Below, piece after piece: positions 4,745 through 60,664 of a DNA stretch of 64,000 nucleotides. The position numbers and the translations under genes were made by a program. The stretch's first letter is position 1. Each line of letters begins with the position of its first letter. The stretch comes from an uncultured Candidatus Saccharibacteria bacterium (GTDB lineage Bacteria; Patescibacteriota; Minisyncoccia; Phycocordibacterales; UBA5272). Under the pieces are notes generated by a model. That model was not told the DNA's origin, ran no database searches, and worked only from the letters and a program-made list of their open reading frames with translations. Location: the NCBI GenBank assembly GCA_964457775.1, contig CAYWEW010000001.1, positions 17,783-81,782 on the forward strand. Reading direction: 5' to 3'.

Positions 4745-4785
4745 AGGTACAGTATATAGTTACTGGTTACTAGTTACTAGTGGAT

Positions 4786-13438: not shown

Positions 13439-13613
13439 TGTTGTTGTTTTTTAATTAAACCATCTGAATATCACGCGTTTGTTCGTAAATATTGATTAAA
13501 TATATACGTATTTACCCAAAACTTACGGAGATACACGGATTACAGACAGCTTCGTAATACTACCACAAAAGTCTATTTTAAGCTAGTAATTGTTAGTCAT
13601 AATTATAAAAAAC

Positions 13614-13650
13614 AAAAGCGACATCTTCGATGTCGCTTTTTGTTGTATTA
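13614..13650. terminator. Terminator hairpin; member of a recurring AAAAGCGACATCTT-n-GATGTCGCTTTT family
   Basis: aaaagcgacatc-ttcg-gatgtcgcttttt. Near-identical copies occur at 17309-17340 and 58440-58470. Confidence 0.55.
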
Positions 13651-17308: not shown

Positions 17309-17340
17309 CAAAAGCGACATCTTAAGATGTCGCTTTTGTA
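17309..17340. terminator. Terminator hairpin, identical copy of the 58440 hairpin
   Basis: aaaagcgacatc-ttaa-gatgtcgcttttgtattt. Confidence 0.55.
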
Positions 17341-17406
17341 TTTACTTTCAACTTTTGAATTAATAAATTCGCGACTTGGTTGCAAATTAATTAAATGTTC
17401 TATAAT

Positions 17407-26552: not shown

Positions 26553-28487
26553 TTACTTTGCATTCTCTTTATCTTCTTGATAAGAGGCATATATACTACG
26601 CGCAAGTATGAAGATGATAAATATTATAGCAATGAGAGCTAACCATTCAACAAGATTGTTTGGCATAAAACCTCTCTCACTGCCTGCTCCAATTACTTTC
26701 TTAGCTCCAGTATCTTTATTACTGATACTGTCATTAGGAGTAATTGAACCTACAACATAAGCAGTTACCTCGTCCTGTACAGATGTATTTGGAACCGTAT
26801 AAATTACATATGCTGTAGTTACTATTGATTTACCAATCGTAGCATCTTGTGCAATTTTGCCTGAGATAGCTACAACTCCTTCTGCGTGAGCATCAAGTGT
26901 GTCTTGATTGATTGTTAATATATGTGTTGCTTCATCATATACACCAGAAGTTGCGAGATCGAATTTTATTTCTGCAGGAATTAGAACTTTTACAACTACA
27001 CCTTTAAGACGTGAGTCTGTAGCATTCTTGTAAGTAATTCTATATGACACTGGAGAATTTGCAGAAAGATTTCCTTCACTTTTTTCTACTCTAAGAGTTA
27101 CAAGCTTTTCACCTTGATTAAGCATTGATGCTTGTGTTTCACTTTTTGCATAGAAACTAGAACCATCTGTACATGTTACGAGAGTTTGTTTCTTAACAAC
27201 TTCTGTAACTACTTTCTTTGTAACAGTCTTCTTTGTTGTTGTGACAGGCTTTACATATGTGGTTACAGCATTCTTTGTGACAAAACTCACTATTTCACCT
27301 TTTACAATTCCATATTGATTCTGCATTACAGCACGACAGTAATAACGTGTTGATGGCTTAAGATTTGCAAGTACATTTGAAAATGGTGCAGATGATGAAT
27401 TACCAATTGAAGCAGTTGCTGTTGTTCGACCAAGACTTGATGTTTCACCATATTCGAACCATCCAGTTGAAGGTGCTCCGTTTGCAATAAGCCCAATACC
27501 GTTACAACGACCACTTGTGTTTGTGATTTGAGTTACAACTGAAGTAACAACATTGTTGAATTTAACGGTTGGTAAAGGAGTAACTGTAGGATATCTAACT
27601 ATTGGTTGAGTATTGTAGTAATTCGAACCACTATAATATGTTGTTGGTTGTGTGTAATTATTAGTATTGTAATTTACAGGACAAAGTGATGAATAAGAAA
27701 CGATTGTTCCATTCCAACATGTGTAATTTGTATTTACTGTATTAATTGTACATACACCATTAACTAATGTTGAGCCAGATGGACATGAAGTATTTGTAAT
27801 TTGGCAAGTACCATTTATAAGAGTTGACCCTGATGGACAAGATACTGAATTAATCTGACATGTTCCGTTTACTAATGTTGAGCCTGATGGACAAGATACA
27901 TTATTATTGTTTGTATATCCACCGTAAGTGTATCCATAACTACCAACTGTTGGTGCGTAATTATAACCACCATAGTTATAACCAGCTTGACCATAACTAA
28001 TTCCAATTTGATATGAAGGTGAACTGTATGATGAAACACCGTATGTTGCTGATGAAACATCAGATGTTGTGTATGGTGGGTAGTTTACACCAGTTTCATA
28101 AGTAGGATATGTTGTGTCTGTGTTATAAGTTGGGTAGGTAGTACCACCACTGTACGATGTTGAGTACGTAGTACCGGTGTCATATATTGGATATGTAGTT
28201 CCTCCACTGTATACAGGATATGTAGTTCCCCCACTGTATGTAGTACCAGTGTCATATATTGGATATGTAGTTCCTCCACTGTATACAGGATATGTGGTTC
28301 CCCCACTGTATGTAGTACCAGTATCGTATATTGGATAATTTGTTGTTCCGCCGGAATATGAACTTACTGAACCAACAAACCCATCATCAAATTGAAGTTG
28401 AGCAAAGGCAATAGAAGTACCTTGAAGAAGCAGAACTCCTGCAAGAAAAACAGATACAATGTTTTGTTTTTTCATGATTGTTTTCAT
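26553..28487 (-). CDS. Repetitive cell-surface protein (644 aa) with signal peptide, tandem peptide repeats and C-terminal TM anchor
   Basis: Signal MKTIMKKQNIVSVFLAGVLLLQGTSIAFA. About three 24-aa YSGGTTYP(V/I)Y repeats, three 18-aa SCPSGSTLxNGTCQI repeats, C-terminal LVEWLALIAIIFIIFILA. Confidence 0.65.
   Translation of the reverse strand: MKTIMKKQNIVSVFLAGVLLLQGTSIAFAQLQFDDGFVGSVSSYSGGTTNYPIYDTGTTYSGGTTYPVYSGGTTYPIYDTGTTYSGGTTYPVYSGGTTYPIYDTGTTYSTSYSGGTTYPTYNTDTTYPTYETGVNYPPYTTSDVSSATYGVSSYSSPSYQIGISYGQAGYNYGGYNYAPTVGSYGYTYGGYTNNNNVSCPSGSTLVNGTCQINSVSCPSGSTLINGTCQITNTSCPSGSTLVNGVCTINTVNTNYTCWNGTIVSYSSLCPVNYNTNNYTQPTTYYSGSNYYNTQPIVRYPTVTPLPTVKFNNVVTSVVTQITNTSGRCNGIGLIANGAPSTGWFEYGETSSLGRTTATASIGNSSSAPFSNVLANLKPSTRYYCRAVMQNQYGIVKGEIVSFVTKNAVTTYVKPVTTTKKTVTKKVVTEVVKKQTLVTCTDGSSFYAKSETQASMLNQGEKLVTLRVEKSEGNLSANSPVSYRITYKNATDSRLKGVVVKVLIPAEIKFDLATSGVYDEATHILTINQDTLDAHAEGVVAISGKIAQDATIGKSIVTTAYVIYTVPNTSVQDEVTAYVVGSITPNDSISNKDTGAKKVIGAGSERGFMPNNLVEWLALIAIIFIIFILARSIYASYQEDKENAK
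27757..27920. repeat. Three tandem 54-bp repeats inside the surface-protein gene (encode the SCPSGSTLxNGTCQI units)
   Basis: Units begin at 27757, 27811 and 27865 with about 80% identity. Confidence 0.7.
28100..28345. repeat. About 3.4 tandem 72-bp repeats inside the surface-protein gene (encode the YSGGTTYP units)
   Basis: Near-identical units start at 28179 and 28251 (gtcatatattggatatgtagttcctccactgtatacaggatatgt...). Confidence 0.7.
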
Positions 28488-28521
28488 AATTGTTTTATCT
28501 ATTACCTTTAATAAGAATTAT

Positions 28522-28550
28522 ATTATATCACCTTTATTATTAAATGTCAA
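28522..28550 (-). promoter_or_regulatory. Minus-strand sigma70-type promoter with exact consensus TTGACA-17-TATAAT driving the surface-protein gene
   Basis: Reverse complement reads cTTGACAtttaataataaaggtgaTATAATataattc, about 35 nt upstream of the ATG at 28487. Confidence 0.55.
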
Positions 28551-28564
28551 GCCCTTTTTATAAT

Positions 28565-28595
28565 AAAAAACAGGTCACCAAAGGAGGTGACCTGT
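28565..28595. terminator. Terminator hairpin downstream of the 266-aa minus-strand gene
   Basis: aaaaaacaggtcacc-aaaggag-gtgacctgt. Confidence 0.5.
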
Positions 28596-28615
28596 GCTGA
28601 GCATACAGCTTGCTT

Positions 28616-29416
28616 TTACTTCTGCTGATAGGTAACTTGGTCAATTTCAACCCTTCCACCACCACCAACACGGCCGATCCAGACGCTTTCCGACTCCCCT
28701 TGTTTCGGAGAAATAATCGAGAAAGTGGCACAGAACGGGGGCCTTCCCTCTCCGTTGCCGGAGGAGAAGATGCACCTGCCAGGATTTTGCTGGGTGGCAG
28801 TGTTTTCGCGCCAATACCAAACGGCATCAGAGCGAGAAACGTGACCAGTAACTACGGGTGGAACGACGGCGGGTATGACTGGTGCAGAAGCTGTGGCTGG
28901 AATCACTGGTTTTTTTGGTTTTTCCGCCTTCGGTTTACTGGTCGGCTTTTTGGGAGTCACCGGAGCAACTACCACCTTGTCTTCCATGTTCGGCTTTTGG
29001 ACCTCACTTGTAGGACAAGCAACTTCACACTTCTTCGCCAAGGCGATTAGTGCTTGGTCAGCCTTCTTTTCAACCGAAGCAAGACCGTTCTTGACCCCCG
29101 CAACCTCGCTGTTATCAGCTTTGGTAAACCAGAGAACAGTTCCAGTAATCAGAGCAAGACCAATCGCAAGCAAACTGCACCAGGAGCAACCTTTGTTGTT
29201 CTTAGGTGAATCGCCACCGGATGACGGAGGAGGTGTGTCACCACCAAGTCCGTTTTCCCTGAAAGACTTTTCAGCCTTTCTGGCGGCGTCCGAAGCTTCT
29301 TTCGACGCGGCGTCAGCTGCTTTTTTGGCGGCTGCGGCGGAAACTGCTTTCTGTGCTGCTTTTTCCATTTCCTCCGCAGCAATGCGGAGGCCTTCAGGTG
29401 TGATCTTCTTGGTCAT
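28616..29416 (-). CDS. Hypothetical bitopic membrane protein with N-terminal Ala/Lys-rich coiled coil; GC-rich gene
   Basis: 266 aa. Strong RBS (aaggaggtcatcATG), cytoplasmic AAEEMEKAAQKAVSAAAAKKAADAASK, one TM (CSLLAIGLALITGTVLWF), Pro/Lys-rich extracellular part. The gene is about 55% GC against about 35% background. Confidence 0.55.
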   Translation of the reverse strand: MTKKITPEGLRIAAEEMEKAAQKAVSAAAAKKAADAASKEASDAARKAEKSFRENGLGGDTPPPSSGGDSPKNNKGCSWCSLLAIGLALITGTVLWFTKADNSEVAGVKNGLASVEKKADQALIALAKKCEVACPTSEVQKPNMEDKVVVAPVTPKKPTSKPKAEKPKKPVIPATASAPVIPAVVPPVVTGHVSRSDAVWYWRENTATQQNPGRCIFSSGNGEGRPPFCATFSIISPKQGESESVWIGRVGGGGRVEIDQVTYQQK

Positions 29417-29556
29417 GATGACCTCCTTTAAATTGATTTTTCAAAATATCATTAACGACTGAATTTACCTGTCGATGACTCTGTGGATGATTATATCATA
29501 TTATTATTAAAAAGTCAAGCTTTACATCTACGAAAAGTACTGCATTATTTCAAAAT

Positions 29557-29592
29557 AAAAACCCCTCTAATCTTTCGATTTGAGGGGTTTGT
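29557..29592. terminator. Terminator hairpin downstream of the lipoprotein gene
   Basis: aaaaacccctc-taatctttcgattt-gaggggttt. Confidence 0.5.
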
Positions 29593-29610
29593 TGGGAGTG
29601 CCGGATTCGA

Positions 29611-30267
29611 CTACTCCCCTTTGTGAGGATCGTCCGGCAGCATGCAGACCATGTTGCCGTCTTGCGGATGACCTTGCCATGCGAGCTTAGCCCAGACTTT
29701 GCCATCCTTACAGCGCGATGGAACTGCACTTGCAACCTTTTCGGGTTGGGTACTGTTGCCAGCGCGATGCGAGTCGTCCGGTGCCATGCAGACCATGTTG
29801 CCGTCTTGCGGATGACCTGGCCATGCGAGCTTAGCCCAGACTTTTCCATCACTACAACGGTTCTGCGGTTGGGTCATGACTTGTTGGACTTGTTGTTGTT
29901 CGCTTTCGCAGTATTTGTTACCTGCGAATGCTCCGACAAGCCCACCGATGATGGCACCGATTCCACGGTTTTCCTCACCACCAATCAGTGCACCACCTAC
30001 AGCACCAGCTGCACCGCCGACAAGTTCACACTTACCGATGTTGGCTCCTGCCTGCATCACTGGTGCAAAATTCCCTTGCGGTTGCGTAATCAGGCGCCCA
30101 TCCCAGCATTCCTGAGGTTGGCCGAGTTTTTGTGGTGCAGGAACGCACCCTGGAGGAAGACGATACGAGTTATTCGCACCGACTCCCATACCCATGCCAC
30201 CTGTTGCACATCCTCCGAGGAGGAGTGTGGCAACAGCGAGAAGTACTGCAAACAGTTTGTTTTTCAT
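29611..30267 (-). CDS. Lipoprotein with glycine-zipper (SlyB / 17-kDa-antigen-like) segment and two tandem 45-aa Cys-containing repeats; GC-rich
   Basis: Signal plus lipobox-like LLLGGC. Glycine zipper VGGAAGAVGGALIGG...GAIIGGLVGAFAG. Repeats C(S/K)DGKVWAKLAW(P/Q)GHPQDGNMVCM(A/L)PDD. Confidence 0.6.
   Translation of the reverse strand: MKNKLFAVLLAVATLLLGGCATGGMGMGVGANNSYRLPPGCVPAPQKLGQPQECWDGRLITQPQGNFAPVMQAGANIGKCELVGGAAGAVGGALIGGEENRGIGAIIGGLVGAFAGNKYCESEQQQVQQVMTQPQNRCSDGKVWAKLAWPGHPQDGNMVCMAPDDSHRAGNSTQPEKVASAVPSRCKDGKVWAKLAWQGHPQDGNMVCMLPDDPHKGE
29636..29905. repeat. Two tandem 135-bp repeats inside the lipoprotein gene
   Basis: cgtccggcagcatgcagaccatgttgccgtcttgcggatgacc... at 29641 and again at 29775 (about 90% identity). 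Confidence 0.7.
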
Positions 30268-30381
30268 GACTTTCTCCTGTAATTAGAATCAATGAGCAGA
30301 TCTCATTTGATTGGAATGATTTCCAACCTACTGAGCTGTATATAGTATACATGTTTTATGGATTTTGTCAAGCTAAATTAT

Positions 30382-30410
30382 TTGACAAATGTACTATACT
30401 ATAGTATATT
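30382..30410 (+). promoter_or_regulatory. Sigma70-type promoter TTGACA-17-TATATT
   Basis: ttgacaaatgtactatactatagtatatt; RBS aaaaggag and ATG 30454 follow. Confidence 0.5.
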
Positions 30411-30453
30411 ATATTTGTTCTTTTCCATACGACGATAAAAAGGAGCCTCTAAA

Positions 30454-30651
30454 ATGGTCCACCCAGTACTGAAAAAAGCGATAGTTGACGGCAGAAAGAG
30501 TGAACTCGAGATTCTCGCAACCCAGTTTCACGAGCAACTCAGCCTACGTGATACTGGAGCAACAGCAAAGATCACCTACAAAGCAATCAAGACTCTGGCG
30601 ACTCCAGAAGAAGTGATTGAAATTCTAGAAAATGAATTCAATTTAGTGTAA
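30454..30651 (+). CDS. Small hypothetical protein (65 aa) with strong promoter, RBS and terminator
   Basis: MVHPVLKKAIVDGRKSELEILATQFHEQLSLRDTGATAKITYKAIKTLATPEEVIEILENEFNLV. Confidence 0.45.
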   Translation: MVHPVLKKAIVDGRKSELEILATQFHEQLSLRDTGATAKITYKAIKTLATPEEVIEILENEFNLV

Positions 30652-30661
30652 ACCACAAACA

Positions 30662-30690
30662 TCAACCCCCGACTAGTTCGGGGGATTTAT
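30662..30690 (+). terminator. Terminator hairpin
   Basis: atcaacccccgac-tagt-tcgggggattt. Confidence 0.55.
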
Positions 30691-30751
30691 ATATGTTGTT
30701 TGTTAAAATTTTTTGACAAATTATATAAAGGTTTTATTAAAAATGACTAAA

Positions 30752-30785
30752 AGTGACCCTGTAAGGGGTCACTTTTTTTAAACAC
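30752..30785 (+). terminator. Second terminator hairpin with T-tract
   Basis: aaaagtgaccc-tgtaa-ggggtcacttttttt. Confidence 0.55.
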
Positions 30786-30814
30786 AGAATCCTGAAAACT
30801 TAAGATTTTAGATG

Positions 30815-30897
30815 CAGTACGAGGAGCATAGGAATTTTTCGAGGAAGTCGTACAAATAGTACGACGACTAAGAAAAATTCCGTAGCGACAAAGTAAT
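30815..30897. repeat. Copy a of a ~85-nt structured intergenic repeat family (four copies in the window)
   Basis: acgaggagcataGGAATTTTTCgaggaaGTCGTACaaataGTACGACgactaaGAAAAATTCCgtagcgacaaagta. Outer 10-bp stem encloses an inner 7-bp hairpin. Ends 19 nt after the rplE stop. Confidence 0.6.
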
Positions 30898-30915
30898 GCG
30901 CTAAAATATTAAGTT

Positions 30916-31470
30916 TTATGCTTTTTTGAACGGGATGCCGAGTAGTTCAAAGAATCGAGTCGCCTCCTCTTTTGTCTTTGCCGTTGTTCCAAGAGTAATA
31001 GCCATACCGAACACATCCTTTAATTCTTCATCGTGAATTTCTGGGAAGATAGTATGTTCCTTGATGCCAAATGTCATATTACCAATATTGTCTACTGATG
31101 TACGATTAAGACCACGGAAGTCCTTTGTACGTGGAAGTGAAACATTGAGTACCTTATCCAAGAAACCAAACATGCGAGCACCGCGAAGTGTTACTGCAAC
31201 ACCGATTGGATCCCCTTCACGAGTTTTGAATGACGCAACTGACATCTTCGCTTTACGAATAGTTGCCTTTTGTCCTGTAATCTTTGAAAGACGATCGAGA
31301 ACTAAGTCGTTAAATTTTTTATCACGCTTCATTGCTGAGCCCGTAGCTACAGAAATGTTAACCTTAACAAGTCTTGGGGCTGCCATTATATTCTTATAAC
31401 CAAATTCTTTTGCAAGAACTGTATACGCTTGCTTTTGCTTATCTTGTACACTCATTATTTTTTCTGCCAT
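30916..31470 (-). CDS. rplE: 50S ribosomal protein L5, detached from the rest of the cluster
   Basis: 184 aa, L5 motifs (MAAPRLVKVNISVATGSA..., GVAVTLRGARMFGFLDKV). Confidence 0.9.
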   Translation of the reverse strand: MAEKIMSVQDKQKQAYTVLAKEFGYKNIMAAPRLVKVNISVATGSAMKRDKKFNDLVLDRLSKITGQKATIRKAKMSVASFKTREGDPIGVAVTLRGARMFGFLDKVLNVSLPRTKDFRGLNRTSVDNIGNMTFGIKEHTIFPEIHDEELKDVFGMAITLGTTAKTKEEATRFFELLGIPFKKA

Positions 31471-31647
31471 ATATTTATTCTAAGCACGATTGGTCCTTGA
31501 GGATATACCTTTCCGGACGTTATACGTCGCTTATTTGTAGAAATTTTCCTTTCTACATTACTGTTAGTAGACTTATACTCTACTACAAAATGGACTATTT
31601 GTAAACAACAAAAATCGACCACTTTTGCTATTTAAATATGCATTATT

Positions 31648-32097
31648 TTATTTCTTTTGAGCTTTCTTAATAACCCCCAACCTAAACTCTGAATATATAG
31701 CATATCTATTAGCAAAAAATGGATTCTCTTTTTCCAATATCTTATATGCAAAAGAAACAATTTCTTTAGTTGAAACATATTTACTTCTTAATTTCATAAT
31801 TTCATCAATTATTTCTCTAGTTAATCTCTTAGCCTTAGCTGCATCGTCTCCCTGGTCACGAATTTTTCCCCCTATTACTGCATTAAAAATAGAAACAAAA
31901 AGCTTTTCATAAACGAATTTCTTTCGGACTAAATTCCTTTTAACAACAAACAATGAGTCGTGTGAGAAATATTCTGTTGTTGTATATATTTCTCCACATT
32001 TCAAACACTTTCTTCTCCGCCAAACCCCTACCTCATCAGTTGTTTTTCGAGAATTAATGACTTCAGTTTTTATACTTTTACAAAATGGACATTTCAT
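31648..32097 (-). CDS. nrdR: Transcriptional repressor NrdR (zinc ribbon + ATP-cone)
   Basis: MKCPFCKS...TEVINSRKT...RRRKCLKCGEIYTTTE N-terminal zinc ribbon; 149 aa. Confidence 0.85.
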   Translation of the reverse strand: MKCPFCKSIKTEVINSRKTTDEVGVWRRRKCLKCGEIYTTTEYFSHDSLFVVKRNLVRKKFVYEKLFVSIFNAVIGGKIRDQGDDAAKAKRLTREIIDEIMKLRSKYVSTKEIVSFAYKILEKENPFFANRYAIYSEFRLGVIKKAQKK

Positions 32098-33323: not shown

Positions 33324-33351
33324 AAAAACGGACACTTAGGTGTCCGTTTTT
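33324..33351 (+). terminator. Terminator hairpin
   Basis: aaaaaacggacac-ttag-gtgtccgtttttg. Confidence 0.55.
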
Positions 33352-33522
33352 GATCAGCAAATTATAAATCACCAAATTTATTTCATGGAAGAAGCTTTAC
33401 TATAAAATATTCTGCTTTCTTTAGTTATTTAAGAATGACTTACAATCAAAATTATACGTGATTTTTTACTTAACTATCGTTTTGTAAAAACATATTATAA
33501 TAATTGTTATATTAAAAATAAA

Positions 33523-34425
33523 TTAACCTCCACCACTACCTCCACCAACATCGCCAGGACCTTCATAATTAGGATCTCCTAATATTATTAAATCAAAAAA
33601 ACTATCAGACATTCCTTGGTGTGTATTTACCCCAGATTTTATACTAGTTACACCATCCGCTTTATCTCCAGAACCCCTAGGAGAATAAAATCCATGATTA
33701 TAGTATTTCATATACCAAGAATAGCTGCCTGCTCTAGGGTCTAAAACTTTCCAAACACGAGCTGGACCAGCCCCACCCCCACAAGCATTCATGTCATTTG
33801 CCCACATTACATAGCGAATTTTTTGGCCACAGTTTTGTGTTGTTGGTGGTTTAGTTTGTGTACATAAAGAATCTGATATGGTTTGCCCCAAAGAATTAAC
33901 ACAAGGGATGACTCTTGTTTGTGCTAATAATTGAGTGTAAGACTTTGTAACTCTTTGACCACAACCATCCGAACCGTTATAAACAATTTCATTATGAGTA
34001 GTAGTGTTCACGACTGTACTACATGACCCCCATGTAGCGGTAGTACTCCAACCAGCGTCACAAATAACGTTACCATTAATGTCTGTAATAAGACCAGCCT
34101 TACAATTAATAGGAAAACCTCCAGAAGAAACACTCTTAGAAACTTTTGAGTCCACATAACTCTTAGTAACCAAAGTAGAAGGATCATCTGCATCCTGTGT
34201 AAGAGCAGAGTATCCTTTATTCCCTCCTGTAATAGTAAAAGGGGATCTTACTTTAAAAGGTCCCAATTTTTCTTGTAAAACAGTACCTACGTTCACAGGG
34301 GCACTTACATTATTAGCTGGAGGTATTCCTGCTGGAGCCCCCGTCCATGCATAAGCAACAGTTCCAAGTACAACAGAAAGCACAAAAATAACTGATGCTT
34401 TATTAAAGGAATCTACTTTATTCAT
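33523..34425 (-). CDS. Secreted hypothetical protein, paralog 1 (300 aa), Gly-rich C-terminus
   Basis: N-terminus MNKVDSFNKASVIFVLSVVLGTVAYAWTGAPAGIPPANNV is shared with the neighbouring gene. Multiple Cys. Ends GDVGGGSGGG. Confidence 0.5.
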   Translation of the reverse strand: MNKVDSFNKASVIFVLSVVLGTVAYAWTGAPAGIPPANNVSAPVNVGTVLQEKLGPFKVRSPFTITGGNKGYSALTQDADDPSTLVTKSYVDSKVSKSVSSGGFPINCKAGLITDINGNVICDAGWSTTATWGSCSTVVNTTTHNEIVYNGSDGCGQRVTKSYTQLLAQTRVIPCVNSLGQTISDSLCTQTKPPTTQNCGQKIRYVMWANDMNACGGGAGPARVWKVLDPRAGSYSWYMKYYNHGFYSPRGSGDKADGVTSIKSGVNTHQGMSDSFFDLIILGDPNYEGPGDVGGGSGGG

Positions 34426-34631
34426 ATTATCTTAATTTTAATTGTTTTAAATTCTAATGTAAAGGAACAAAAGGTAAAAAGGACACCGCCATTTGTCGTT
34501 CTTGATCAGCAAATTATAAATCACCAAATTTATTTCACAGAAGAAGCTTTACTATAAAAATATTCTGCTTTCTTTTGGTCTTTCAAAAATTAATTTATAA
34601 TAAATGTTATATTTACTTTTTGTTACTTAAA

Positions 34632-35609
34632 TTAATAAGCTCCGTATAAATTGTAACAAACGTTCTTAACAGCTGTTGGATTTCCACATGCACCATATGC
34701 ATAACAACTTGCTACATATCCCATTTTTTGATCAGGTGTAGGTTTAGCTCTGTAACAATCAAAACATTCTCCAGAACCACCACAAATATCAGTACGAACC
34801 ACATAAGTATACAAATGTGTACAAACATCATTAAGAACATAATATTGTGCGCCACACACTGTACAATTTCTATTTGTATAAGAACCGCCAAGAACGCCAT
34901 TTGTACATAGGCGACTCTCACTAACAGAGGCGCAAGTTTGACCAGAAGTTACCGCAGTTGTTTGGTATGCTGTTACTGATTGACCACTTGAAACTGTTGT
35001 ATTCCAAGGAGATGGACACGACGCACCCGGCGTTACCGTACAATTTCTATTAGTATAAGACCCGCTTAGCACAGTATTAGTACATAGACGATTCTGACTT
35101 ACTGACTCACAAGTTTGACCATAAGGAACAGCAGCTGTTTGATATGTGGTTACTGATTGACCGCTAGCAATTGTGCCACCCCAAGGCACAGTACAGGATG
35201 TTGGACTCAAAACTTTACAAACAATATTACCATTAAAATCTGTACCTAGAACGTCACAACCCGAAAGAGCGCTAAAGTTAATACCATCTATACCACTTGT
35301 ACCAATACCTAAAGATGAGGTAGATGTCCAGGAAGCATTTCCTTCGGCATCAGAAGTTAATATTTTACCTTCTCCTGCACCCGGAGCAAAGTTAAAAGCA
35401 GTATATGCTTTTAATAAACCGTCTATACCAAGTGACCCTGCCTTAAGTTGAATTGTATTACCTACGTTTACTGGTGCGTCAACATTATTAGCAGGTGGTG
35501 TTCCTGCTGGTGCCCCTGTCCAAGCATAAGCAACAGTTCCAAGTACAACAGATAGCGCAAAAATAACTGATGCTTTATTAAAGGAATCTACCTTGACTGA
35601 TTTGTTCAT
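34632..35609 (-). CDS. Secreted hypothetical protein, paralog 2 (~325 aa), with internal ~55-aa Cys-containing repeat
   Basis: N-terminus MNKSVKVDSFNKASVIFALSVVLGTVAYAWTGAPAG. Repeats CT(V)PW..TxxSGQSVTxYQTxAVxxGQTCxSVSxxRLCTNxVLxGSYTNRNCTV x2. Start set at the internal ATG 35609. Confidence 0.5.
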   Translation of the reverse strand: MNKSVKVDSFNKASVIFALSVVLGTVAYAWTGAPAGTPPANNVDAPVNVGNTIQLKAGSLGIDGLLKAYTAFNFAPGAGEGKILTSDAEGNASWTSTSSLGIGTSGIDGINFSALSGCDVLGTDFNGNIVCKVLSPTSCTVPWGGTIASGQSVTTYQTAAVPYGQTCESVSQNRLCTNTVLSGSYTNRNCTVTPGASCPSPWNTTVSSGQSVTAYQTTAVTSGQTCASVSESRLCTNGVLGGSYTNRNCTVCGAQYYVLNDVCTHLYTYVVRTDICGGSGECFDCYRAKPTPDQKMGYVASCYAYGACGNPTAVKNVCYNLYGAY

Positions 35610-35660
35610 TATATAAGTATACCTTTTTCTGAGGTGTTTAGAAGTGTACAAGATAAATAA

Positions 35661-45380: not shown

Positions 45381-45482
45381 AATTACATTCTATCAAATTA
45401 CAAACTAAAAGCACGGCACCGTAGGTGTCGTACTTTCTATGTATCTTGAATGTATCCCCTAAAAAGTCAGAAATTGAATGAA

Positions 45483-45563
45483 ATGCGCGAAGCGAGGATA
45501 TTTTTATGAGAAGACATACTTACGCGTACGGCGACTCGTAAAAATATTATCGCGACAAAGCAG
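45483..45563. repeat. Copy d of the ~85-nt structured repeat family
   Basis: gcgcgaagcgagGATATTTTTAtgagaagacatacttacgcgtacggcgactcgTAAAAATATTatcgcgacaaagcag, 10 nt past the secF stop. Confidence 0.55.
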
Positions 45564-45572
45564 TTCGTCAAT

Positions 45573-46448
45573 TTATAACTTTTTACCATTCCAGACGGTA
45601 AGGAGAGGAGAAGCCACAAATATCGATGAGTAAGTCCCCACAAACATACCGATAATAAGTGTAAGCGTAAACCACTTTGTCATAACTGGACCAAAGAAGA
45701 ATAGGGCAAGCAAAGCTAAAATAACAGTTACTGAAGTATTAATAGAACGTGTAAATGTTTGCATAAGACTCGCACCAACTATTTCATCGAATGATTGCTT
45801 CTTGCCTGATAACTTCAAATTCTCACGAATTCTATCGAACACCACAATCTTATCTGAAATAGAAATACCAATAATAGTAAGAAGAGCAATTACAAAAAGT
45901 GTATCTACTTCAGCACCATACTTATGTGAAAGAATCACATACACACCAGTTGGAACAATTATGTCGTGAATAAGTGTAACCATTGCTATTACACCATATT
46001 TCCATGATTGAACTGGGAGTGAAACTTCACGGAAAGAGAAAGCGATGAAAGCAAGAATAGCAAGAACCACAACAATAAGAGCAATGATTGCCTTCTTAGT
46101 CATCTCAGCACCGAGTGTTGGACCGACTGTGTTCACTTGAGTAAATTCAAAAGGGGTAGCATTGTTTACGTTTGCAAGTTTTGTAATTACTGGACCAATT
46201 TCTTCATATGTTTTTGAAGAAATAAAACGATAAGTTAATTCCCCTGTTTTATATAATGCTATACCTTCTTGCTCAAAAACTTCTTCTATAAGTTCTGCAG
46301 ATTGAGTACTATAAGTAATATCAATAACTGAACCTCCAGTAAAATCAATACCTTGCTTGATGCCGTATGTGCTAATAAGAAGTAAGGAAGCGACAACTAG
46401 TGTTATTGATAATCCAATAAAGAATATTTTGTGTTTAATTATTTGCAT
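45573..46448 (-). CDS. secF: Protein translocase subunit SecF
   Basis: 291 aa, 6 TM, downstream of secD. Confidence 0.85.
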   Translation of the reverse strand: MQIIKHKIFFIGLSITLVVASLLLISTYGIKQGIDFTGGSVIDITYSTQSAELIEEVFEQEGIALYKTGELTYRFISSKTYEEIGPVITKLANVNNATPFEFTQVNTVGPTLGAEMTKKAIIALIVVVLAILAFIAFSFREVSLPVQSWKYGVIAMVTLIHDIIVPTGVYVILSHKYGAEVDTLFVIALLTIIGISISDKIVVFDRIRENLKLSGKKQSFDEIVGASLMQTFTRSINTSVTVILALLALFFFGPVMTKWFTLTLIIGMFVGTYSSIFVASPLLTVWNGKKL

Positions 46449-48252: not shown

Positions 48253-50421
48253 ATGACTTCGTACAATCTCACATCTTCAATTTCCTCAATTGCTCGAATA
48301 AATCCTGACCATCAAGAAGGGTTAAAGCGACTACATATAGAAAACATAAGTGATTTACTTTATCATTTCCCTACTCGTTATGCAGATATACGCGAAGAAG
48401 CTCATGTTGTAAATATAAAAAAGGGAGACCAGGTTACTATTTATGGTGTCATGGAAAAAGTCACTATCAAAAGAAGTTTCAGAGGACATATGCCAATGAC
48501 AGAAGCAAGAGTTGCAGATGATACTGGAATAATAAAATGCATTTGGTTTAATCAAGCATATATTGGCAAGATGTATCCTGACGGAACCAAGGTAAAAGTT
48601 GCGGGGGTGGTTAATGAAGATAGCCGTGGAGTATTCCTTTCTAATCCAACAATAGAACGACTAGTTGCACTACCTGAACACAGTGACTCACTTTTCGCAT
48701 CCACTGTTGCTCCAGAATTTCTTACACCTATATATAGAGAAACAAAGGGTGTCTCATCTTTATATCTTTACACACTCATCAAGAAAGCTATTTCAGGTGG
48801 AGTACTCGATAATGTCACTGACCCTATTCCATCACATATAACCAAAAAACTTCACCTTCCAGAATTAAAAGATGCGCTTCTTTATATTCACTTTCCAAAG
48901 AACGAAGCCTTAACTGTGGCTGCTCGTAAAAGATTCGCTTTTGAAGAAATATTTTATCTTCAACTAAAACAATATAAAGAAAAAGTTGAAGCCAAACATT
49001 CTCTTGCTTATCCCATAACTATCGACAACAAAGAAATTGATAAGTTCATCAAATCCTTCCCCTTTACTCCAACTAAGGCCCAATTAGATGCCATAGAATC
49101 AATTTTAAAAGACGTTTCAAGAAAAGAACCAATGGGAAGACTGCTTGAAGGTGACGTTGGTAGTGGTAAGACTTTTGTTGCTGCGGTTGTGTCGCATGCC
49201 ATACTACAAAATAGAGTTGGAAAATCTGGAACAAATCTTCAAATTGCATATATGGCCCCAACTGAAATTTTGGCCAAGCAACACTTCGAAAGTTTTATTA
49301 GTTATTTTAAAGGAACTGGAATTGAAATTGGGTTGTTAACCAGCGCTGGTTGTTCGAAGTTCCCAAGTAAAACTGACAAAACGTCCCACACTACTATTTC
49401 CCGTGCACAATTACTTAAATGGTTAGCTGATGGCAGAGTATCAATTGTTATAGGAACACATTCACTTATTCAAAAAACAATACAATTTTCTAATCTCGCA
49501 TTAATTATTATTGATGAACAACATCGCTTCGGAGTAAAACAACGAAAACTTCTAGCTTCTAAAAAAGGTGAAGTCAGAAAAGAACTCCCTCACCTACTAT
49601 CGATGACTGCTACCCCGATTCCACGAACACTAGCTCTCACTATCTTCGGAGACCTAGACCTCACTGTAATTGACACAATGCCAAAGGAACGCAAAAAAAT
49701 TATTACTGAAATAATAAAAAGTAAAGACAGGACTGAAACCTATGAGAAAATTCGTAAAGAATTAGAAGCTGGACGACAAGTCTATGTAATATGTCCACGT
49801 ATAGATGAACAAGATGAGGAAGAAGCTCAAAAAAGAACTTTAAAAAGTGTGAAGGAGGAAGCGAAAAGATTATCAGAAATTATTTTCCCAGAATTTATTG
49901 TTGATATCTTGCACAGCAAAATGAAAAAAGAAGAGAAGGAAGAAGTTATGCAAGATTTCTTGGATAAAAAATCTGACATATTAGTTGCTACTTCAGTTAT
50001 CGAAGTTGGTATCAATGTACCGAATGCAACGGTGATTGTTATAGAACACGCTGATAGATTCGGACTCGCACAACTTCACCAACTTCGTGGTCGTGTCGGA
50101 CGACGAGAGTACCAATCCTATTGTTATCTGTTTACTGAGAGCGTTGGCGAGATAACACAAACACGACTGAAGGCACTAGTTAATGCAAAGAATGGGTTCG
50201 AGCTTGCAGAAGCAGATATGATGGCACGTGGCATAGGAATGCTTATGGATGGAAAACAGTGGGGAATTAGTGATCTTGCAATGGAAGCTATTAAGAATCC
50301 GAAGTTAGTTGAGATAGCACGTGATGAAGCGCGCGAGTTACTCGATAATGACGGAACATTAGAAAATTATCCCGACCTAGCAGAAATAATTAAAAGTCGC
50401 GAAACTGTTCACATGGAATAA
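48253..50421 (+). CDS. recG: ATP-dependent DNA helicase RecG
   Basis: Wedge/OB N-domain, helicase motif I LLEGDVGSGKTFVA, DEQHRFG, C-terminal helicase domain; 722 aa. Confidence 0.9.
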   Translation: MTSYNLTSSISSIARINPDHQEGLKRLHIENISDLLYHFPTRYADIREEAHVVNIKKGDQVTIYGVMEKVTIKRSFRGHMPMTEARVADDTGIIKCIWFNQAYIGKMYPDGTKVKVAGVVNEDSRGVFLSNPTIERLVALPEHSDSLFASTVAPEFLTPIYRETKGVSSLYLYTLIKKAISGGVLDNVTDPIPSHITKKLHLPELKDALLYIHFPKNEALTVAARKRFAFEEIFYLQLKQYKEKVEAKHSLAYPITIDNKEIDKFIKSFPFTPTKAQLDAIESILKDVSRKEPMGRLLEGDVGSGKTFVAAVVSHAILQNRVGKSGTNLQIAYMAPTEILAKQHFESFISYFKGTGIEIGLLTSAGCSKFPSKTDKTSHTTISRAQLLKWLADGRVSIVIGTHSLIQKTIQFSNLALIIIDEQHRFGVKQRKLLASKKGEVRKELPHLLSMTATPIPRTLALTIFGDLDLTVIDTMPKERKKIITEIIKSKDRTETYEKIRKELEAGRQVYVICPRIDEQDEEEAQKRTLKSVKEEAKRLSEIIFPEFIVDILHSKMKKEEKEEVMQDFLDKKSDILVATSVIEVGINVPNATVIVIEHADRFGLAQLHQLRGRVGRREYQSYCYLFTESVGEITQTRLKALVNAKNGFELAEADMMARGIGMLMDGKQWGISDLAMEAIKNPKLVEIARDEARELLDNDGTLENYPDLAEIIKSRETVHME

Positions 50422-51529: not shown

Positions 51530-51606
51530 ATCATTCACCAAAAAAAGGCAATCGCAAGATTGCCTTTTTGTATTTTAACTACACACTACCAACTACGTAC
51601 TATTCT

Positions 51607-53569: not shown

Positions 53570-54001
53570 ATGCGTTTGATAGATAGTAAAAAACTACATC
53601 TCACTTATGTAATAACAGATAGCCTTGAAGCAGGTGTTGAGCTTTTTGGTTTTGAGGTAAAGGCTCTACGTAAAAAGTTGGGTTCACTTGATGGTGCTAA
53701 GGTTTTAATTCGTGGTGGTGAGGCATTTCTTGTTGGTGTTTATATTCCACCATACCAAGTAGCGAATACTCCGAAGGGTTATGACCCCTATCGTACTCGT
53801 AAATTACTTCTCAAAAGATCTGACATTGAGAATTTGTACAACAAAGAACAATCAAAGACCTTGACATTACATCCAAATTCATTGTATTCTACACACAACC
53901 TCATTAAATGTGAGGTTGCTGTTTGTAAGAAAAAAGATAGTAAAGATAAGCGAGAAGATATTAAGAAAGATATTGCTCGCAGAGAATTACGTTCTATATA
54001 A
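53570..54001 (+). CDS. smpB: SsrA-binding protein SmpB
   Basis: 143 aa; GxEVKAL and RTRKLLL motifs; tmRNA gene lies directly downstream. Confidence 0.85.
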   Translation: MRLIDSKKLHLTYVITDSLEAGVELFGFEVKALRKKLGSLDGAKVLIRGGEAFLVGVYIPPYQVANTPKGYDPYRTRKLLLKRSDIENLYNKEQSKTLTLHPNSLYSTHNLIKCEVAVCKKKDSKDKREDIKKDIARRELRSI

Positions 54002-54044
54002 TCACGACAACGTGTCTGAATTTTAAAATTAAGAATATTACCTT

Positions 54045-54128
54045 AGATACGCGAAGCAACAAATTTTTAGAAGAAGGCGTACTAATAGTACGACGACTGA
54101 TAAAAATGAAGTTGCGACAAAGTAGATG
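54045..54128. repeat. Copy b of the ~85-nt structured repeat family, 23 nt upstream of the tmRNA 5' end
   Basis: tacgcgaagcaacAAATTTTTAgaagaagGCGTACtaataGTACGaCgactgaTAAAAATgaagttgcgacaaagtagat. Confidence 0.55.
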
Positions 54129-54151
54129 AGGTAAGATTGTTTATTTTAATT

Positions 54152-54538
54152 GGGGGTGACTTTGGCTTCGATACTAAGAATATGATGTATGTGCTGTATC
54201 GAGACTGCTCTTACACTCGTAAACGTTTTGAGCAACCATGTTGCAAACTCAACTGGCAAGGCTATCCGTTCGCCATACGCGTTCGGACTAGTTCCAGCAT
54301 TCGTCTAATTTAGACCTATCTGGTGTCCTTCTTTTTCGTATCTACGGAAAAAGTCTGGGCAATATAACAGAAGATGTAGGTTATCTTGTTGCATAGCAAC
54401 CTAACCGAAACAAACATGCTATACATTCATTGTTTTCGTTTGTTTTCTATAATGAATACGAACACATGAAGCAAACTACATACAGTAGATTCATGCACCA
54501 TACATTATTACACGCGGGTTCAATTCCCGCCACCTCCA
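54152..54538 (+). ncRNA. ssrA: tmRNA (ssrA), one-piece, ~387 nt, CCA not encoded
   Basis: 5' GGGGGTGACTTTGGCTTCGAT and 3' CACGCGGGTTCAATTCCCGCCACCTCCA match the conserved tmRNA tRNA-like ends; acceptor strands pair. Candidate tag ORF GCA AAC ... GTC TAA at 54243-54308 (ANSTGKAIRSPYAFGLVPAFV). Confidence 0.7.
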
Positions 54539-54592
54539 CAAATACAAAATACTCCACCCCTCTGGTGGAGTATTTTGTATTTGTGGAGGTGG
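54530..54592 (+). terminator. 29-bp perfect hairpin that includes the tmRNA 3' acceptor strand
   Basis: CCACCTCCACAAATACAAAATACTCCACC-cctct-GGTGGAGTATTTTGTATTTGTGGAGGTGG. Confidence 0.5.
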
Positions 54593-58357: not shown

Positions 58358-58439
58358 AGCTTCGAAGAGTTCCGTAGCTAGCAAGCGAAGGAACGTTCAT
58401 AAACTACTAAGTCAAAAGTATAAGGCACTTAAAAAACAC

Positions 58440-58470
58440 AAAAGCGACATCTTAAGATGTCGCTTTTGTA
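58440..58470 (+). terminator. Terminator hairpin (identical to the 17309 copy)
   Basis: aaaagcgacatc-ttaa-gatgtcgcttttgtattttt. Confidence 0.6.
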
Positions 58471-58514
58471 TTTTTACAAACTCCATCAGCACAGACTTTA
58501 GTCAAAAATTGCTT

Positions 58515-58598
58515 TAGCTACGCGAAGCATAGATATTTTTTAAAGAAGACGTAGTAGACCTACGGCGACTGAAAAAAATATCTTAGCGACAAAGTAGA
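58515..58598. repeat. Copy c of the ~85-nt structured repeat family, 16 nt past the stop of the LOG-like gene
   Basis: tacgcgaagcatAGATATTTTTTaaagaagaCGTAGtagacCTACGgcgactgAAAAAAATATCTtagcgacaaagtagat. Confidence 0.6.
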
Positions 58599-58613
58599 TA
58601 AAATAATTTTTAA

Positions 58614-59186
58614 CTAAAGTCTAAGTTCCCTTTCGCCGTTAAGCTCTTGCTTTCTTACCATCTTAATCAACTTTTCTATCATTATTTTTGGGTCTTTTTC
58701 AAAAATAACATTTGGATTTGTTCGATCACTATTTTTTATGATATTTTGAATCACTTCATCTGTCGCCCACTCTCCAACAAGTACTCCAAGAGGCATATTA
58801 GCTTCCCAAGCCACTGTAAACTCATGAATAGTACCAATACGACCACAACCAATTACAACCGCATCTGACGAGCGTATAAGCATGAGGTCGCGTCCAGGAA
58901 AACCGAACCCTGTGTATACGACGGTGTCCATAGCCTTAAGTGGTAATCTGTACACCTCCACATGTTCTTTCTTGCTTGCTGCAGGAGAAAGACCAAAAGA
59001 AAATCCCCCTGCCTCCTTTGCCCCTTCAGCTGCATACATAGGAAAACCGCTTGTTGCACCTGTAACAATCTGACATCCTTGTCTAGCAATCTCACGACCA
59101 ATTTCTTTAGCAATTGGTATTACAGATGGTCCACAATGTGCTATTTCAGCAGCGCCTGAGACACTGATAGTAATTCGTTGTTTCAT
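58614..59186 (-). CDS. LOG-family / TIGR00725-type Rossmann-fold nucleotide-binding protein (lysine-decarboxylase-like)
   Basis: GATSGFPMYAAEGA and VVIGCGRIGTIHEF match the LOG GGGxGxM / PGGxGTxEE motifs. Confidence 0.55.
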   Translation of the reverse strand: MKQRITISVSGAAEIAHCGPSVIPIAKEIGREIARQGCQIVTGATSGFPMYAAEGAKEAGGFSFGLSPAASKKEHVEVYRLPLKAMDTVVYTGFGFPGRDLMLIRSSDAVVIGCGRIGTIHEFTVAWEANMPLGVLVGEWATDEVIQNIIKNSDRTNPNVIFEKDPKIMIEKLIKMVRKQELNGERELRL

Positions 59187-59225
59187 TTTACTAGTATATA
59201 GTTACTGGTTGATAGTTACTAGTGG
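59187..59225 (-). promoter_or_regulatory. Promoter cassette: CCACTA + three tandem heptamers + TATATACT + 6 nt + ATG (likely short-leader or leaderless mRNA)
   Basis: Minus strand reads CCACTAGTAACTATCAACCAGTAACTATATACTagtaaaATG, 31/33 identical to the cassette at 4751-4783. Confidence 0.45.
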
Positions 59226-59230
59226 ACTAC

Positions 59231-60604: not shown

Positions 60605-60664
60605 GAGAATAGTTGGTGGTTATTAGTTACTGGTTCTTAGTTTAATACTAAAAATTAAAAATAC

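Follow-up and report, generated by a model that had tools for sequence, protein, structure and literature searches.

An uncatalogued family of imperfect palindromic repeats beside the stop codons of Patescibacteria genes

We analysed a 64,000-nucleotide (nt) stretch of DNA (hereafter the window) from an uncultured Candidatus Saccharibacteria bacterium, contig CAYWEW010000001.1, in which four copies of a palindromic repeat lie beside the genes for ribosomal protein L5 (rplE), SecF, a SLOG/LOG-like protein and transfer-messenger RNA (tmRNA). A sequence-only reading of the window had placed these copies at 30815, 45483, 54045 and 58515, all in one orientation. Both the sites and the orientation were borne out by the sequence, and an independent repeat finder also recovers the repeat families. 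The copies are named a, b, c and d in the order of these coordinates. When aligned, they have a mean column identity of 79%, and the sequence blocks that had been described as shared are present with small deviations only, namely TACGAGGAGCA in copy a and TGCGCGAAGCG, GAAGACATA and GCGACAAAGCA in copy b. The composite pattern GAAGNC..CGNCGACT..GCGACAAAG matches these four sites and no others in the window (0.00 matches expected from shuffles). A covariance model built from relatives gives the four copies 89-106 bits (a 97.7, b 88.7, c 96.5 and d 106.2), whereas the best unrelated match, with filters off, scores 15.7 bits; the window therefore contains exactly four copies. A fifth candidate from the repeat finder (50347-50383, 65% identity) had no support from the covariance model.

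The element is larger than the initial estimate of about 85 nt, since another 20-25 nt or so on each side also pairs. The window elements have a conserved centre of about 105 nt within an imperfect hairpin of about 125-135 nt. Minimum free energies of the whole hairpins range from -40 to -52 kcal/mol (z -4.8 to -8.3), and folding of either strand far exceeds that of shuffles. The letters that had been given to the stem variants do not follow the coordinates: AGATATTTTTT/AAAAAATATCT and CGTAG/CTACG are those of the copy at 58515, GATATTTTTA is from the one at 45483 and AAATTTTTA from the one at 54045.

All four hairpins are given as written on the plus strand. Copy a spans 30795..30917 (model match 30804-30906; earlier core 30815-30897) and abuts the stop of rplE (30916..31470, minus strand; PF00281, PF00673), whose TAA, as its reverse complement at 30916-30918, sits in the base of the 3' arm. 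About 18 nt beyond the copy, a terminator scan called a canonical intrinsic terminator on the rplE strand (30749..30776, minus), and copy a therefore lies inside what would be the transcribed 3' untranslated region (UTR). Copy b spans 45460..45585 (model match 45470-45573). The gene secF (45573..46448, minus; PF02355, PF07549) reads into its distal arm, so that the last codons and the TAA (45573-45575) are inside the stem. About 29 nt further on lies a G+C-rich hairpin with T-rich tails on both sides (45413..45431), which the scan called on the plus strand and which, read on the secF strand, has one A.C mismatch and the tail GCTTTTAGTTTG. Copy d spans 58493..58622 (model match 58505-58607), and the last two codons and TAG (58614-58616) of a SLOG cluster4/LOG-like gene (58614..59186, minus; PF18306) are paired in its stem. 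Roughly 23 nt beyond it lies a perfectly palindromic bidirectional terminator (A-run, stem, T-run; 58438..58469) common to rplT on the plus strand and the LOG-like gene on the minus strand. Copy c spans 54024..54149 (model match 54034-54135) and is the only window copy in sense orientation to its neighbours, starting about 22 nt past the stop of smpB (53570..54001, plus; PF01668) and ending 2-3 nt ahead of the 5' end of the tmRNA gene ssrA (54152..54541, plus; RF00023, 89.3 bits). The neighbour distances noted earlier were roughly right, as the cores of a, b and d end 18, 9 and 15 nt before the rplE, secF and SLOG/LOG-like stops, and the 23 nt from the core of copy c to the tmRNA 5' end were confirmed.

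Gene order around the copies is unusual in that rplE adjoins nrdR and is not within a spc-type ribosomal cluster (30916-32097). The gene smpB is directly upstream of ssrA, with the repeat alone between them (53570-54541). Copy d marks the end of the LOG-like gene, and the stretch just upstream of that gene, 59231-60604, encodes a beta-CASP/metallo-beta-lactamase/RMMBL protein (RNase J-like ribonuclease), a candidate RNA-processing enzyme nearby with no demonstrated link to the element.

A family of structured palindromes

At gathering thresholds, Rfam 15 found only the tmRNA and two tRNAs in the window, and copies a and d searched at E-values up to 10 returned only chance matches to hairpins resembling microRNA precursors, far below thresholds. 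No BLAST match was found in phage, plasmid and viral collections. A single pattern match in IMG/VR was put down to chance, since our covariance model R1 (104 positions, 33 pairs) does not match it. Searches of the literature on repeats and RNA motifs of the candidate phyla radiation (CPR), and on the literal sequence blocks, surfaced only primers and unrelated papers; TIGR-Tas arrays were set aside because they are tandem arrays rather than dispersed hairpins.

Relatives were found by an exact-pattern scan of 185,579 species genomes, which returned 59 loci. Thirty-three of these are in low-GC metagenome-assembled genomes (MAGs) of Patescibacteria (CPR), the remainder being high-GC chance matches. 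The left block TACGCGAAGC, absent from the search pattern, is present in 33 of the 33 Patescibacteria loci, each of which scores at least 74 bits by the model. R1 detected 14 additional diverged copies within the genome loci, and a strict pattern scan of metagenomes gave 22 loci with 32 copies, 22 of them new. Across Patescibacteria MAGs and metagenomes the matches to R1 total 83, with some sequences occurring in both collections and with tandem pairs of copies among them; the covariance-model search for more copies that had been proposed from the four window copies, run on the window, the genome loci and the metagenome loci, thus did find them. Submitters label the hosts as Paceibacterota, Nomura-, Kaiser-, Sacchari- and Gracilibacteria. 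A broad taxonomic spread, as read from MAG labels such as Saccharibacteria, Gracilibacteria and Nomurabacteria, would be overstated: between MAGs with different labels, the SSB and S7 proteins share 75-89% identity, and therefore many hosts are probably fairly close relatives and the true breadth narrower than the labels. The repeat belongs to a Patescibacteria-specific, uncatalogued family of interspersed imperfect palindromes with a centre of about 105 nt and a lineage- or locus-specific distal stem, 125-190 nt overall.

The consensus, in the written orientation and from the outside in, consists of the distal stem, a proximal stem (AAATTGNTTTAG / GATGAANTAATTT) with tandem G.A, UAC/GUA pairs, a GCGAA/GACAAA loop with GC/GC as its closing pairs, a 3x3 loop or helix that varies, an A/U stem of 10 bp and a further tandem G.A. 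The inner part continues through AG/CU, AA/GA, a G-C pair, an R.R mismatch and a CGUAC/GUACG stem to a variable apical loop of 5-8 nt. There are two GAAG/CGAC 2x2 purine loops, separated by about 21 bp, and at this spacing in the alignment both would point to one side of the helix. Interpretations of the internal loops as K-turn, loop E/sarcin-ricin or box C/D motifs were dropped because there is no 3-nt bulge beside the tandem G.A, and a bulged-G motif formed from AGUA/GAA is impossible given that the UAC/GUA pairs covary (AU to GC or UA). SRP RNA, 6S RNA and Y-RNA-like readings were ruled out by the multi-copy nature of the family.

Pairing is well kept across the family. An alignment of 36 sequences has 90.7% of cells paired and 17 pairs that change on both sides; with diverged copies included (49 sequences), the paired cells make up 92.2%, and changes on both sides are seen in 27 of 33 pairs. 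For these 49 sequences we obtained a covariation score of 0.458 versus 0.141 for shuffles (none of 500 as high) and at most 0.106 for slid-partner controls. In six closely related copy pairs, three of them orthologous pairs of window copies, few changes fall in the internal loops (2-10 of 31-32 columns), whereas the apical loop varies freely, and double compensatory substitutions are seen. The compensatory changes noticed in the four window copies are real, the covariation is strong once relatives join the alignment, and the proposal of a genuine structured repeat family is supported. The step from compensatory changes to selection on structure has a limit, since in palindromic DNA covariation on its own cannot tell selection on RNA apart from selection, or template-switch correction, on DNA.

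A 'variant B' subfamily has the form TAC(A/G)AGGC...TTTTTGCGACCAAGGCGTAC...GTACGACGCGTGGAGCAAAAA...AACG(A/C)AGTA, with copies at L037:2502-2604, L008:5996-6098, L008:2384-2487, L042:6484-6586, L025:4121-4225 and L007:949-1052 (L numbers denote loci). Its architecture is that of variant A, with different loop sequences (TACAAGGC...GCGACCAAGGCGTAC...GTACGACGCGTGGAGC...AACGAAGTA), and genomes that carry it have variant A as well, the two at times forming a tandem after a single gene. At L044:5213-5371, an insert of about 60 nt replaces the apical hairpin and holds a second GTACGGCGAC block; this copy may be a nested or recombined element.

Position and orientation relative to genes

The GCGACAAAGTA side of the element is its 3' side as written, and the neighbour on that side was scorable for 68 copies (48 from genomes and 20 new ones from metagenomes). 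The gene found there is on the opposite strand in 55 of the 68 (36 of 48 genome and 19 of 20 metagenome copies), and in 44 of these 55 its stop codon falls -1 to 15 nt from the end of the model (29 genome, 15 metagenome). Among the 29 genome copies the stop codon is TAA in 22 and TAG in seven, and in 23 some or all of its bases are paired at the foot of the hairpin. On the far side of the element the distances vary, and 34 copies sit between two genes that are both on the strand opposite to the element. This is a location of the REP type, extragenic and mainly downstream of open reading frames (ORFs), and the earlier label of a REP-like 3' element pointed to the right neighbourhood. Orientation tracks the adjacent gene rather than GC skew, and single loci hold both orientations. 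An orientation set by replication, prompted by the uniformly negative GC skew of the window, was rejected for these two reasons.

Terminator-type G+C-rich hairpins with a T-rich tail follow, on the strand of the gene and about 15-110 nt on, in 25 of 43 stop-adjacent copies, and window copies a, b and d each have the layout stop, element, terminator on the minus strand. Elsewhere copies are operon-internal, as in ssb-E-rpsR-E-terminator and rpsG-E-E-fusA-E, where E stands for the element. The upstream genes are largely housekeeping: L5, SecF and SLOG/LOG-like in the window, and SSB, RF, S12, S7, S20, L11, NusG, SecY and a sigma-like gene elsewhere, with EF-G, GyrB, BipA, GAPDH, S15 and others recognised by eye from translations. 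A further copy (L056:211-356, minus strand) lies antisense inside a 23S rRNA gene (L056:1-2498; Rfam LSU match, with model positions 1547-2925 spread across the 2498 nt), where it forms the first part of an insertion of about 470 nt in the helix-63 region, between ...GGCCUGCCCUCACCAC and GUGGUGGGGGCCGCAGCGA...GACUGUUUACC.

Hairpins directly behind genes might themselves be terminators of an unusual intrinsic or factor-dependent class, and the apical stem plus TCTTCTT of copies c and d did scan as weakly terminator-like on the strand of the gene. The full hairpin has no U-tract, however, and no T-run follows it on either strand in the window copies; a separate canonical terminator follows in the 25 of 43 cases above, many copies are operon-internal and one is within 23S rRNA. 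We therefore regard such a terminator class as most improbable. From the layouts, in which the element stands between a stop codon and a terminator or within an operon, it follows that the upstream gene and the element almost certainly share a transcript, in which the element appears as the reverse complement of the written strand. Copies a, b and d would most likely be transcribed in this orientation as 3' UTRs, and copy c alone among the window copies is expected to be transcribed in the orientation in which it is written.

The sequence-only reading had also entertained a free-standing novel non-coding RNA in the written orientation, which is not supported, as copies a, b and d lie between a minus-strand stop and a terminator hairpin on that strand. 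More generally, the elements could be free-standing or antisense small RNA genes, transcribed as written and converging on the 3' ends of neighbouring genes. The written strand is RNA-like, with tandem G.A, many G.U pairs and a fold more stable by about 10 kcal/mol, and copy c and about 20% of all copies are sense to local transcription. Nevertheless, a terminator stands only 14-20 nt upstream of copies a and d in the written orientation, too close for a promoter to fit in between, and promoter-like matches in the window show no excess over shuffles, none of them preceding any copy as written. The 34 copies between two opposite-strand genes, the lack of a consistent T-run after the hairpin and a fixed spacing to the stop codon, which an antisense gene would not need, also argue against small RNA genes, and we consider them very unlikely. 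A promoter inside the 5' arm (TTGCTT-N17-GAGATT) was considered and dropped, as its consensus is weak and not general.

We tentatively favour, with a confidence that stops short of even, an ERIC/REP-like co-transcribed hairpin, 3'-UTR or intercistronic, that acts in cis on the mRNA of the upstream cistron. The element would be transcribed together with the upstream gene, and the mRNA would fold into a long hairpin broken by mismatches, with the stop codon within its base. In cis, such a hairpin could serve as a barrier to 3'-to-5' decay, as a processing site or as a platform for a conserved RNA-binding protein, which would recognise the internal loops that do not vary; in this way it would determine how stable the upstream cistron is or how much it yields. 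An action of this kind has been put forward for ERIC, REP and Correia-type repeats. New copies come about by duplication or insertion, and homogenisation can occur within a genome. That the elements are transcribed, that RNA is their active form and what kind of effect they have is what we infer.

Selection, duplication and the acting strand

Over about 129 nt, including the locus-specific distal arms, orthologous hairpins have identities of 0.89 (a/L023), 0.90 (b/L058) and 0.80 (d/L059). The neighbouring genes rplE, secF and LOG-like are only 0.47, 0.45 and 0.37 identical at their four-fold sites, with a nucleotide identity of 0.74-0.77 as a whole. Hairpins at 0.80-0.90 versus four-fold sites at 0.37-0.47 amount to purifying selection in place.

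Duplication has also shaped the family. The outer-stem lineage TAAAC(A/T)GACAAAATT...AATTTTCTC(A/T)GTTTAA occurs behind ssb in L053 and behind rpsR in L042 and L044, and the lineage AAAAAGTCA(T/G)AAATT behind secF, nusG, a sigma-like gene and typA. Relatives differ in how many copies an intergenic region holds, and ORFs (secF, typA) sometimes read into an arm of the element. In the MAG nzgw469 (L018, L023, L032, L055 and L059), the cores at five loci are 0.86-0.99 identical, whereas identity among the window copies is 0.63-0.81, and that of the core in the orthologous pair d/L059 only 0.78; the distal stems of nzgw469 are still locus-specific and orthologous to those of the window. This pattern indicates that cores have probably been homogenised by gene conversion or concerted evolution, or recently replaced, in one lineage only. 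As far as sequence comparison goes, the sub-lineages at non-orthologous sites, tandem copies, 23S rRNA copy and homogenised cores show a duplicative history. Family membership, conservation of structure, the rule of position and orientation, purifying selection and duplicative history all have direct support in these comparisons.

Such dynamics are what a palindromic mobile or recombinogenic DNA element of the REPIN, miniature inverted-repeat transposable element (MITE) or attC type would produce, with an antisense-strand hairpin or cruciform read by a transposase, recombinase or topology protein. The RNA hairpin would then be a by-product, the stop-codon position would reflect target preference and the survival of harmless insertions, and template switching would explain part of the covariation, given that quasipalindrome correction by template switching could in general make 'compensatory' changes without selection on RNA. 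Alongside the shared outer stems, tandem copies, nzgw469 cores and 23S rRNA insertion, the copy with the 60-nt apical insert fits this reading, as do the TA dinucleotides on both flanks of L053, L042, L044 and window copy b. Against it, the locus-specific distal stems are kept between orthologous sites far beyond the neutral level, which speaks for constraint at the level of the host and not for junk. The termini have no constant sequence, copies a and d have neither flanking TA nor a visible target duplication, and orientation tracks the gene and not replication skew. No transposase adjoins any copy, and a tblastn search with IS608 TnpA, a weak test, found nothing in about 330 kb. No clean empty site was recovered either; a candidate after rpsR in L053 was abandoned because the region could not be aligned. 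We hold a DNA-level element to be the main rival reading, viable although less likely than not.

The wobble pairs bear on the same choice. In 34 of 36 copies the written strand, which is antisense to the gene beside it, has a fold about 10 kcal/mol more stable than that of its complement. In the core it has 72 G.U versus 31 A.C cells, about half of the A.C cells being register artefacts of one subfamily, and in the distal stems, which are independent, 100 versus 49; this ratio of about 2:1 recurs as G.T over A.C on antisense-strand DNA. In the mRNA-sense hairpin, C.A mismatches are accordingly about twice as frequent as G.U pairs, and the invariant mismatches, all purine-purine on the written strand, become pyrimidine-pyrimidine. 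If deamination of the coding or lagging-template strand were the source of a bias, the wobble asymmetry should run the other way. Selection for a G-poor, pyrimidine-rich mRNA-sense strand could give the same counts, so that the asymmetry is not decisive. Conserved mismatches that are asymmetric also resemble the features that HUH enzymes read on single-stranded REP DNA (PMC3733652).

All of these strand observations weigh against the co-transcribed mRNA hairpin that we favour, and so do the DNA-level dynamics seen in the shared sub-lineages and in the nzgw469 cores. A stabilising hairpin also looks redundant where an intrinsic terminator comes 20-30 nt later. Finally, roughly a fifth of the copies have the sense orientation; copy c is one of them, and others make up a small subfamily, TTCGCGAAGC...AAAGAA, found in 5' leaders, for example before rpsG. 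The strand evidence as a whole is in conflict: by position and orientation the mRNA carries the reverse complement, whereas fold and wobble favour the antisense strand. The gene rpsG is in fact flanked by two inverted copies in L020 (1124-1226 and 1879-1982) and in L047 (303-406 and 1053-1156), the leader copy being sense and about 165-170 nt upstream and the other antisense, 10-11 nt past the stop. Ahead of rpsG, L020:1290-1385 also holds a palindromic heptamer array, (CCTGTAG)n...(CTACTAG)n.

It is conceivable, though in our view unlikely, that the antisense strand functions instead of the mRNA hairpin, either as DNA, in a hairpin of the template strand, or as an antisense RNA, with the GAAG/CGAC loops read by a Patescibacteria-specific protein. 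Were this so, the element would be a stop-codon-anchored, orientation-specific signal of an undescribed kind. It could be an attC-like site for single-strand recombination or marking on core genes or, alternatively, a DNA-level signal that couples the ends of translation units to the control of transcription, replication or topology in minimal genomes. Interest would be high if an antisense-strand or DNA reading proves right.

Patescibacteria have streamlined genomes of roughly 1 Mb and are almost entirely uncultured, and to our knowledge their gene regulation is essentially unknown. A conserved, structured family under purifying selection that follows the stops of ssb and of genes for ribosomal proteins, translation factors and secretion offers a handle on post-transcriptional or DNA-level control. 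The covariance model could enter Rfam and annotation pipelines, which now leave stretches of 130-190 nt blank, and the element could be used as a marker of operon ends. There is also a lesson of method, in that covariation in a palindromic DNA repeat does not itself identify an RNA and has to be weighed with position, orientation and wobble asymmetry.

Other repeats occur in the window. A second intergenic motif of GTTACTA/GTTACTG-like heptamers (AGTATATAGTTACTGGTTACTAGTTACTAGTGGA), similar to the array in L020, is found at 4751-4784, 59193-59226 and 60604-60637, just upstream (in minus-strand sense) of gene starts; it stands 7 nt ahead of the LOG-like start and also where the beta-CASP (RNase J-like) gene begins. 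Some terminators of the window make up a small repeat family of their own: the hairpins at 17309-17343 and 58439-58473, 41 kb apart, are 100% identical across 35 nt (CAAAAGCGACATCTTAAGATGTCGCTTTTGTATTT), and related versions lie at 13603-13627 and 51541-51575. Tandem repeats of 54 nt and 72 nt (3 and 5 units; 27735-28379) in a 644-amino-acid ORF at 26553-28487 suggest a repetitive surface-type protein. An 86-nt direct repeat (29630-29859; 91% identical, 144 nt apart) is surrounded by a G+C-richer stretch (28001-32000; 0.42 versus about 0.36), and long ORFs overlap it on both strands, the minus-strand ORF having glycine-zipper Pfam matches. Direct repeats of 63-152 nt that are 77-95% identical (33345-35594) link the minus-strand ORFs 33523-34425 and 34632-35651, which points to a probable recent tandem gene duplication.

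Comparison with known repeat families

ERIC, or IRU, elements are 127-bp intergenic repeats of enterobacteria, related to RU/YPAL, for which an effect on the stability of flanking mRNA and a MITE-like history have been proposed. The Patescibacteria family resembles them in being an imperfect palindrome (roughly 100-170 bp) with a conserved central part that forms a long RNA hairpin near the ends of ORFs. Both are conserved between species, and both share a transcribed intergenic or 3' location, which here would follow from the layout of stop, element and terminator. There is, however, no sequence similarity, and the ERIC2 core has no match in the window at up to three mismatches. The present family also belongs to another phylum, obeys a strict orientation rule and pairs the stop codon in the base of its stem; its distal arms vary by lineage or locus around a conserved centre, and its internal loops consist of invariant purine-purine mismatches.

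REPs are defined as G+C-rich stem-loops of 20-40 nt with an unpaired GTAG (or CGTC) tag at one end, and both REPs and MITEs downstream of coding regions are transcribed and can stabilise or destabilise mRNA (PMC3733652). Like REP, BIME and REPIN sequences, the elements described here are extragenic and mostly downstream of coding regions, form imperfect palindromes with conserved mismatches, are inherited vertically in families homogenised within genomes and contain GTAG tetranucleotides (CGTAGCGACAAAGTAG). Recognition of a single strand, as in REP, would explain the strand asymmetry. REPs nevertheless occur in hundreds per genome, whereas we find A+T-rich elements of 105-190 nt, four of them in this 64-kb window, in which GTAG occurs twice, internal and partly paired rather than as an unpaired end tag. 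No RAYT (Y1 HUH) gene was found in the window and the 33 loci by the weak tblastn test described above.

The family is also like the hairpin MITEs (Correia/NEMIS of Neisseria, RPE of Rickettsia, Nezha, BOX/RUP), which are small, non-coding and fold back over their full length. In both, copies are inserted beside or into gene ends and, in our family very probably, co-transcribed; here some copies are flanked by TA and ORFs read in (secF, typA). MITEs conserve their terminal inverted repeats, whereas in our family the termini vary, with several sub-lineages, and the centre is conserved. No autonomous element was seen, and the window copies are old (63-81% identical) and held in place by purifying selection.

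Integron attC sites are imperfect palindromes of 57-141 nt (123-126 bp in the Vibrio cholerae repeats) that lie directly behind, and often overlap, the stop of an ORF. They have a fixed orientation to that ORF, the bottom strand, antisense to it, folds best, and conserved unpaired bases outweigh sequence. A stop-codon-anchored imperfect palindrome in fixed orientation, with the better fold on the strand antisense to the ORF, describes our elements equally well. Yet these adjoin core housekeeping genes in their usual operons (rplE, secF, rpsG, fusA, ssb), no cassette array was seen, and no intI or attI was seen in any fetched locus. Moreover, attC sites conserve the outer R''/R' boxes (GTTRRRY) and vary centrally, the reverse of what we observe.

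The family would work like ERIC/IRU, REP/REPIN and the hairpin MITEs while being a member of none of them, a new family of a known kind. What sets it apart within that kind is that it is strictly anchored to the stop codon and always oriented in one way to the gene, that its centre is conserved while its ends vary, and that its wobble pairs are asymmetric in favour of the antisense strand.

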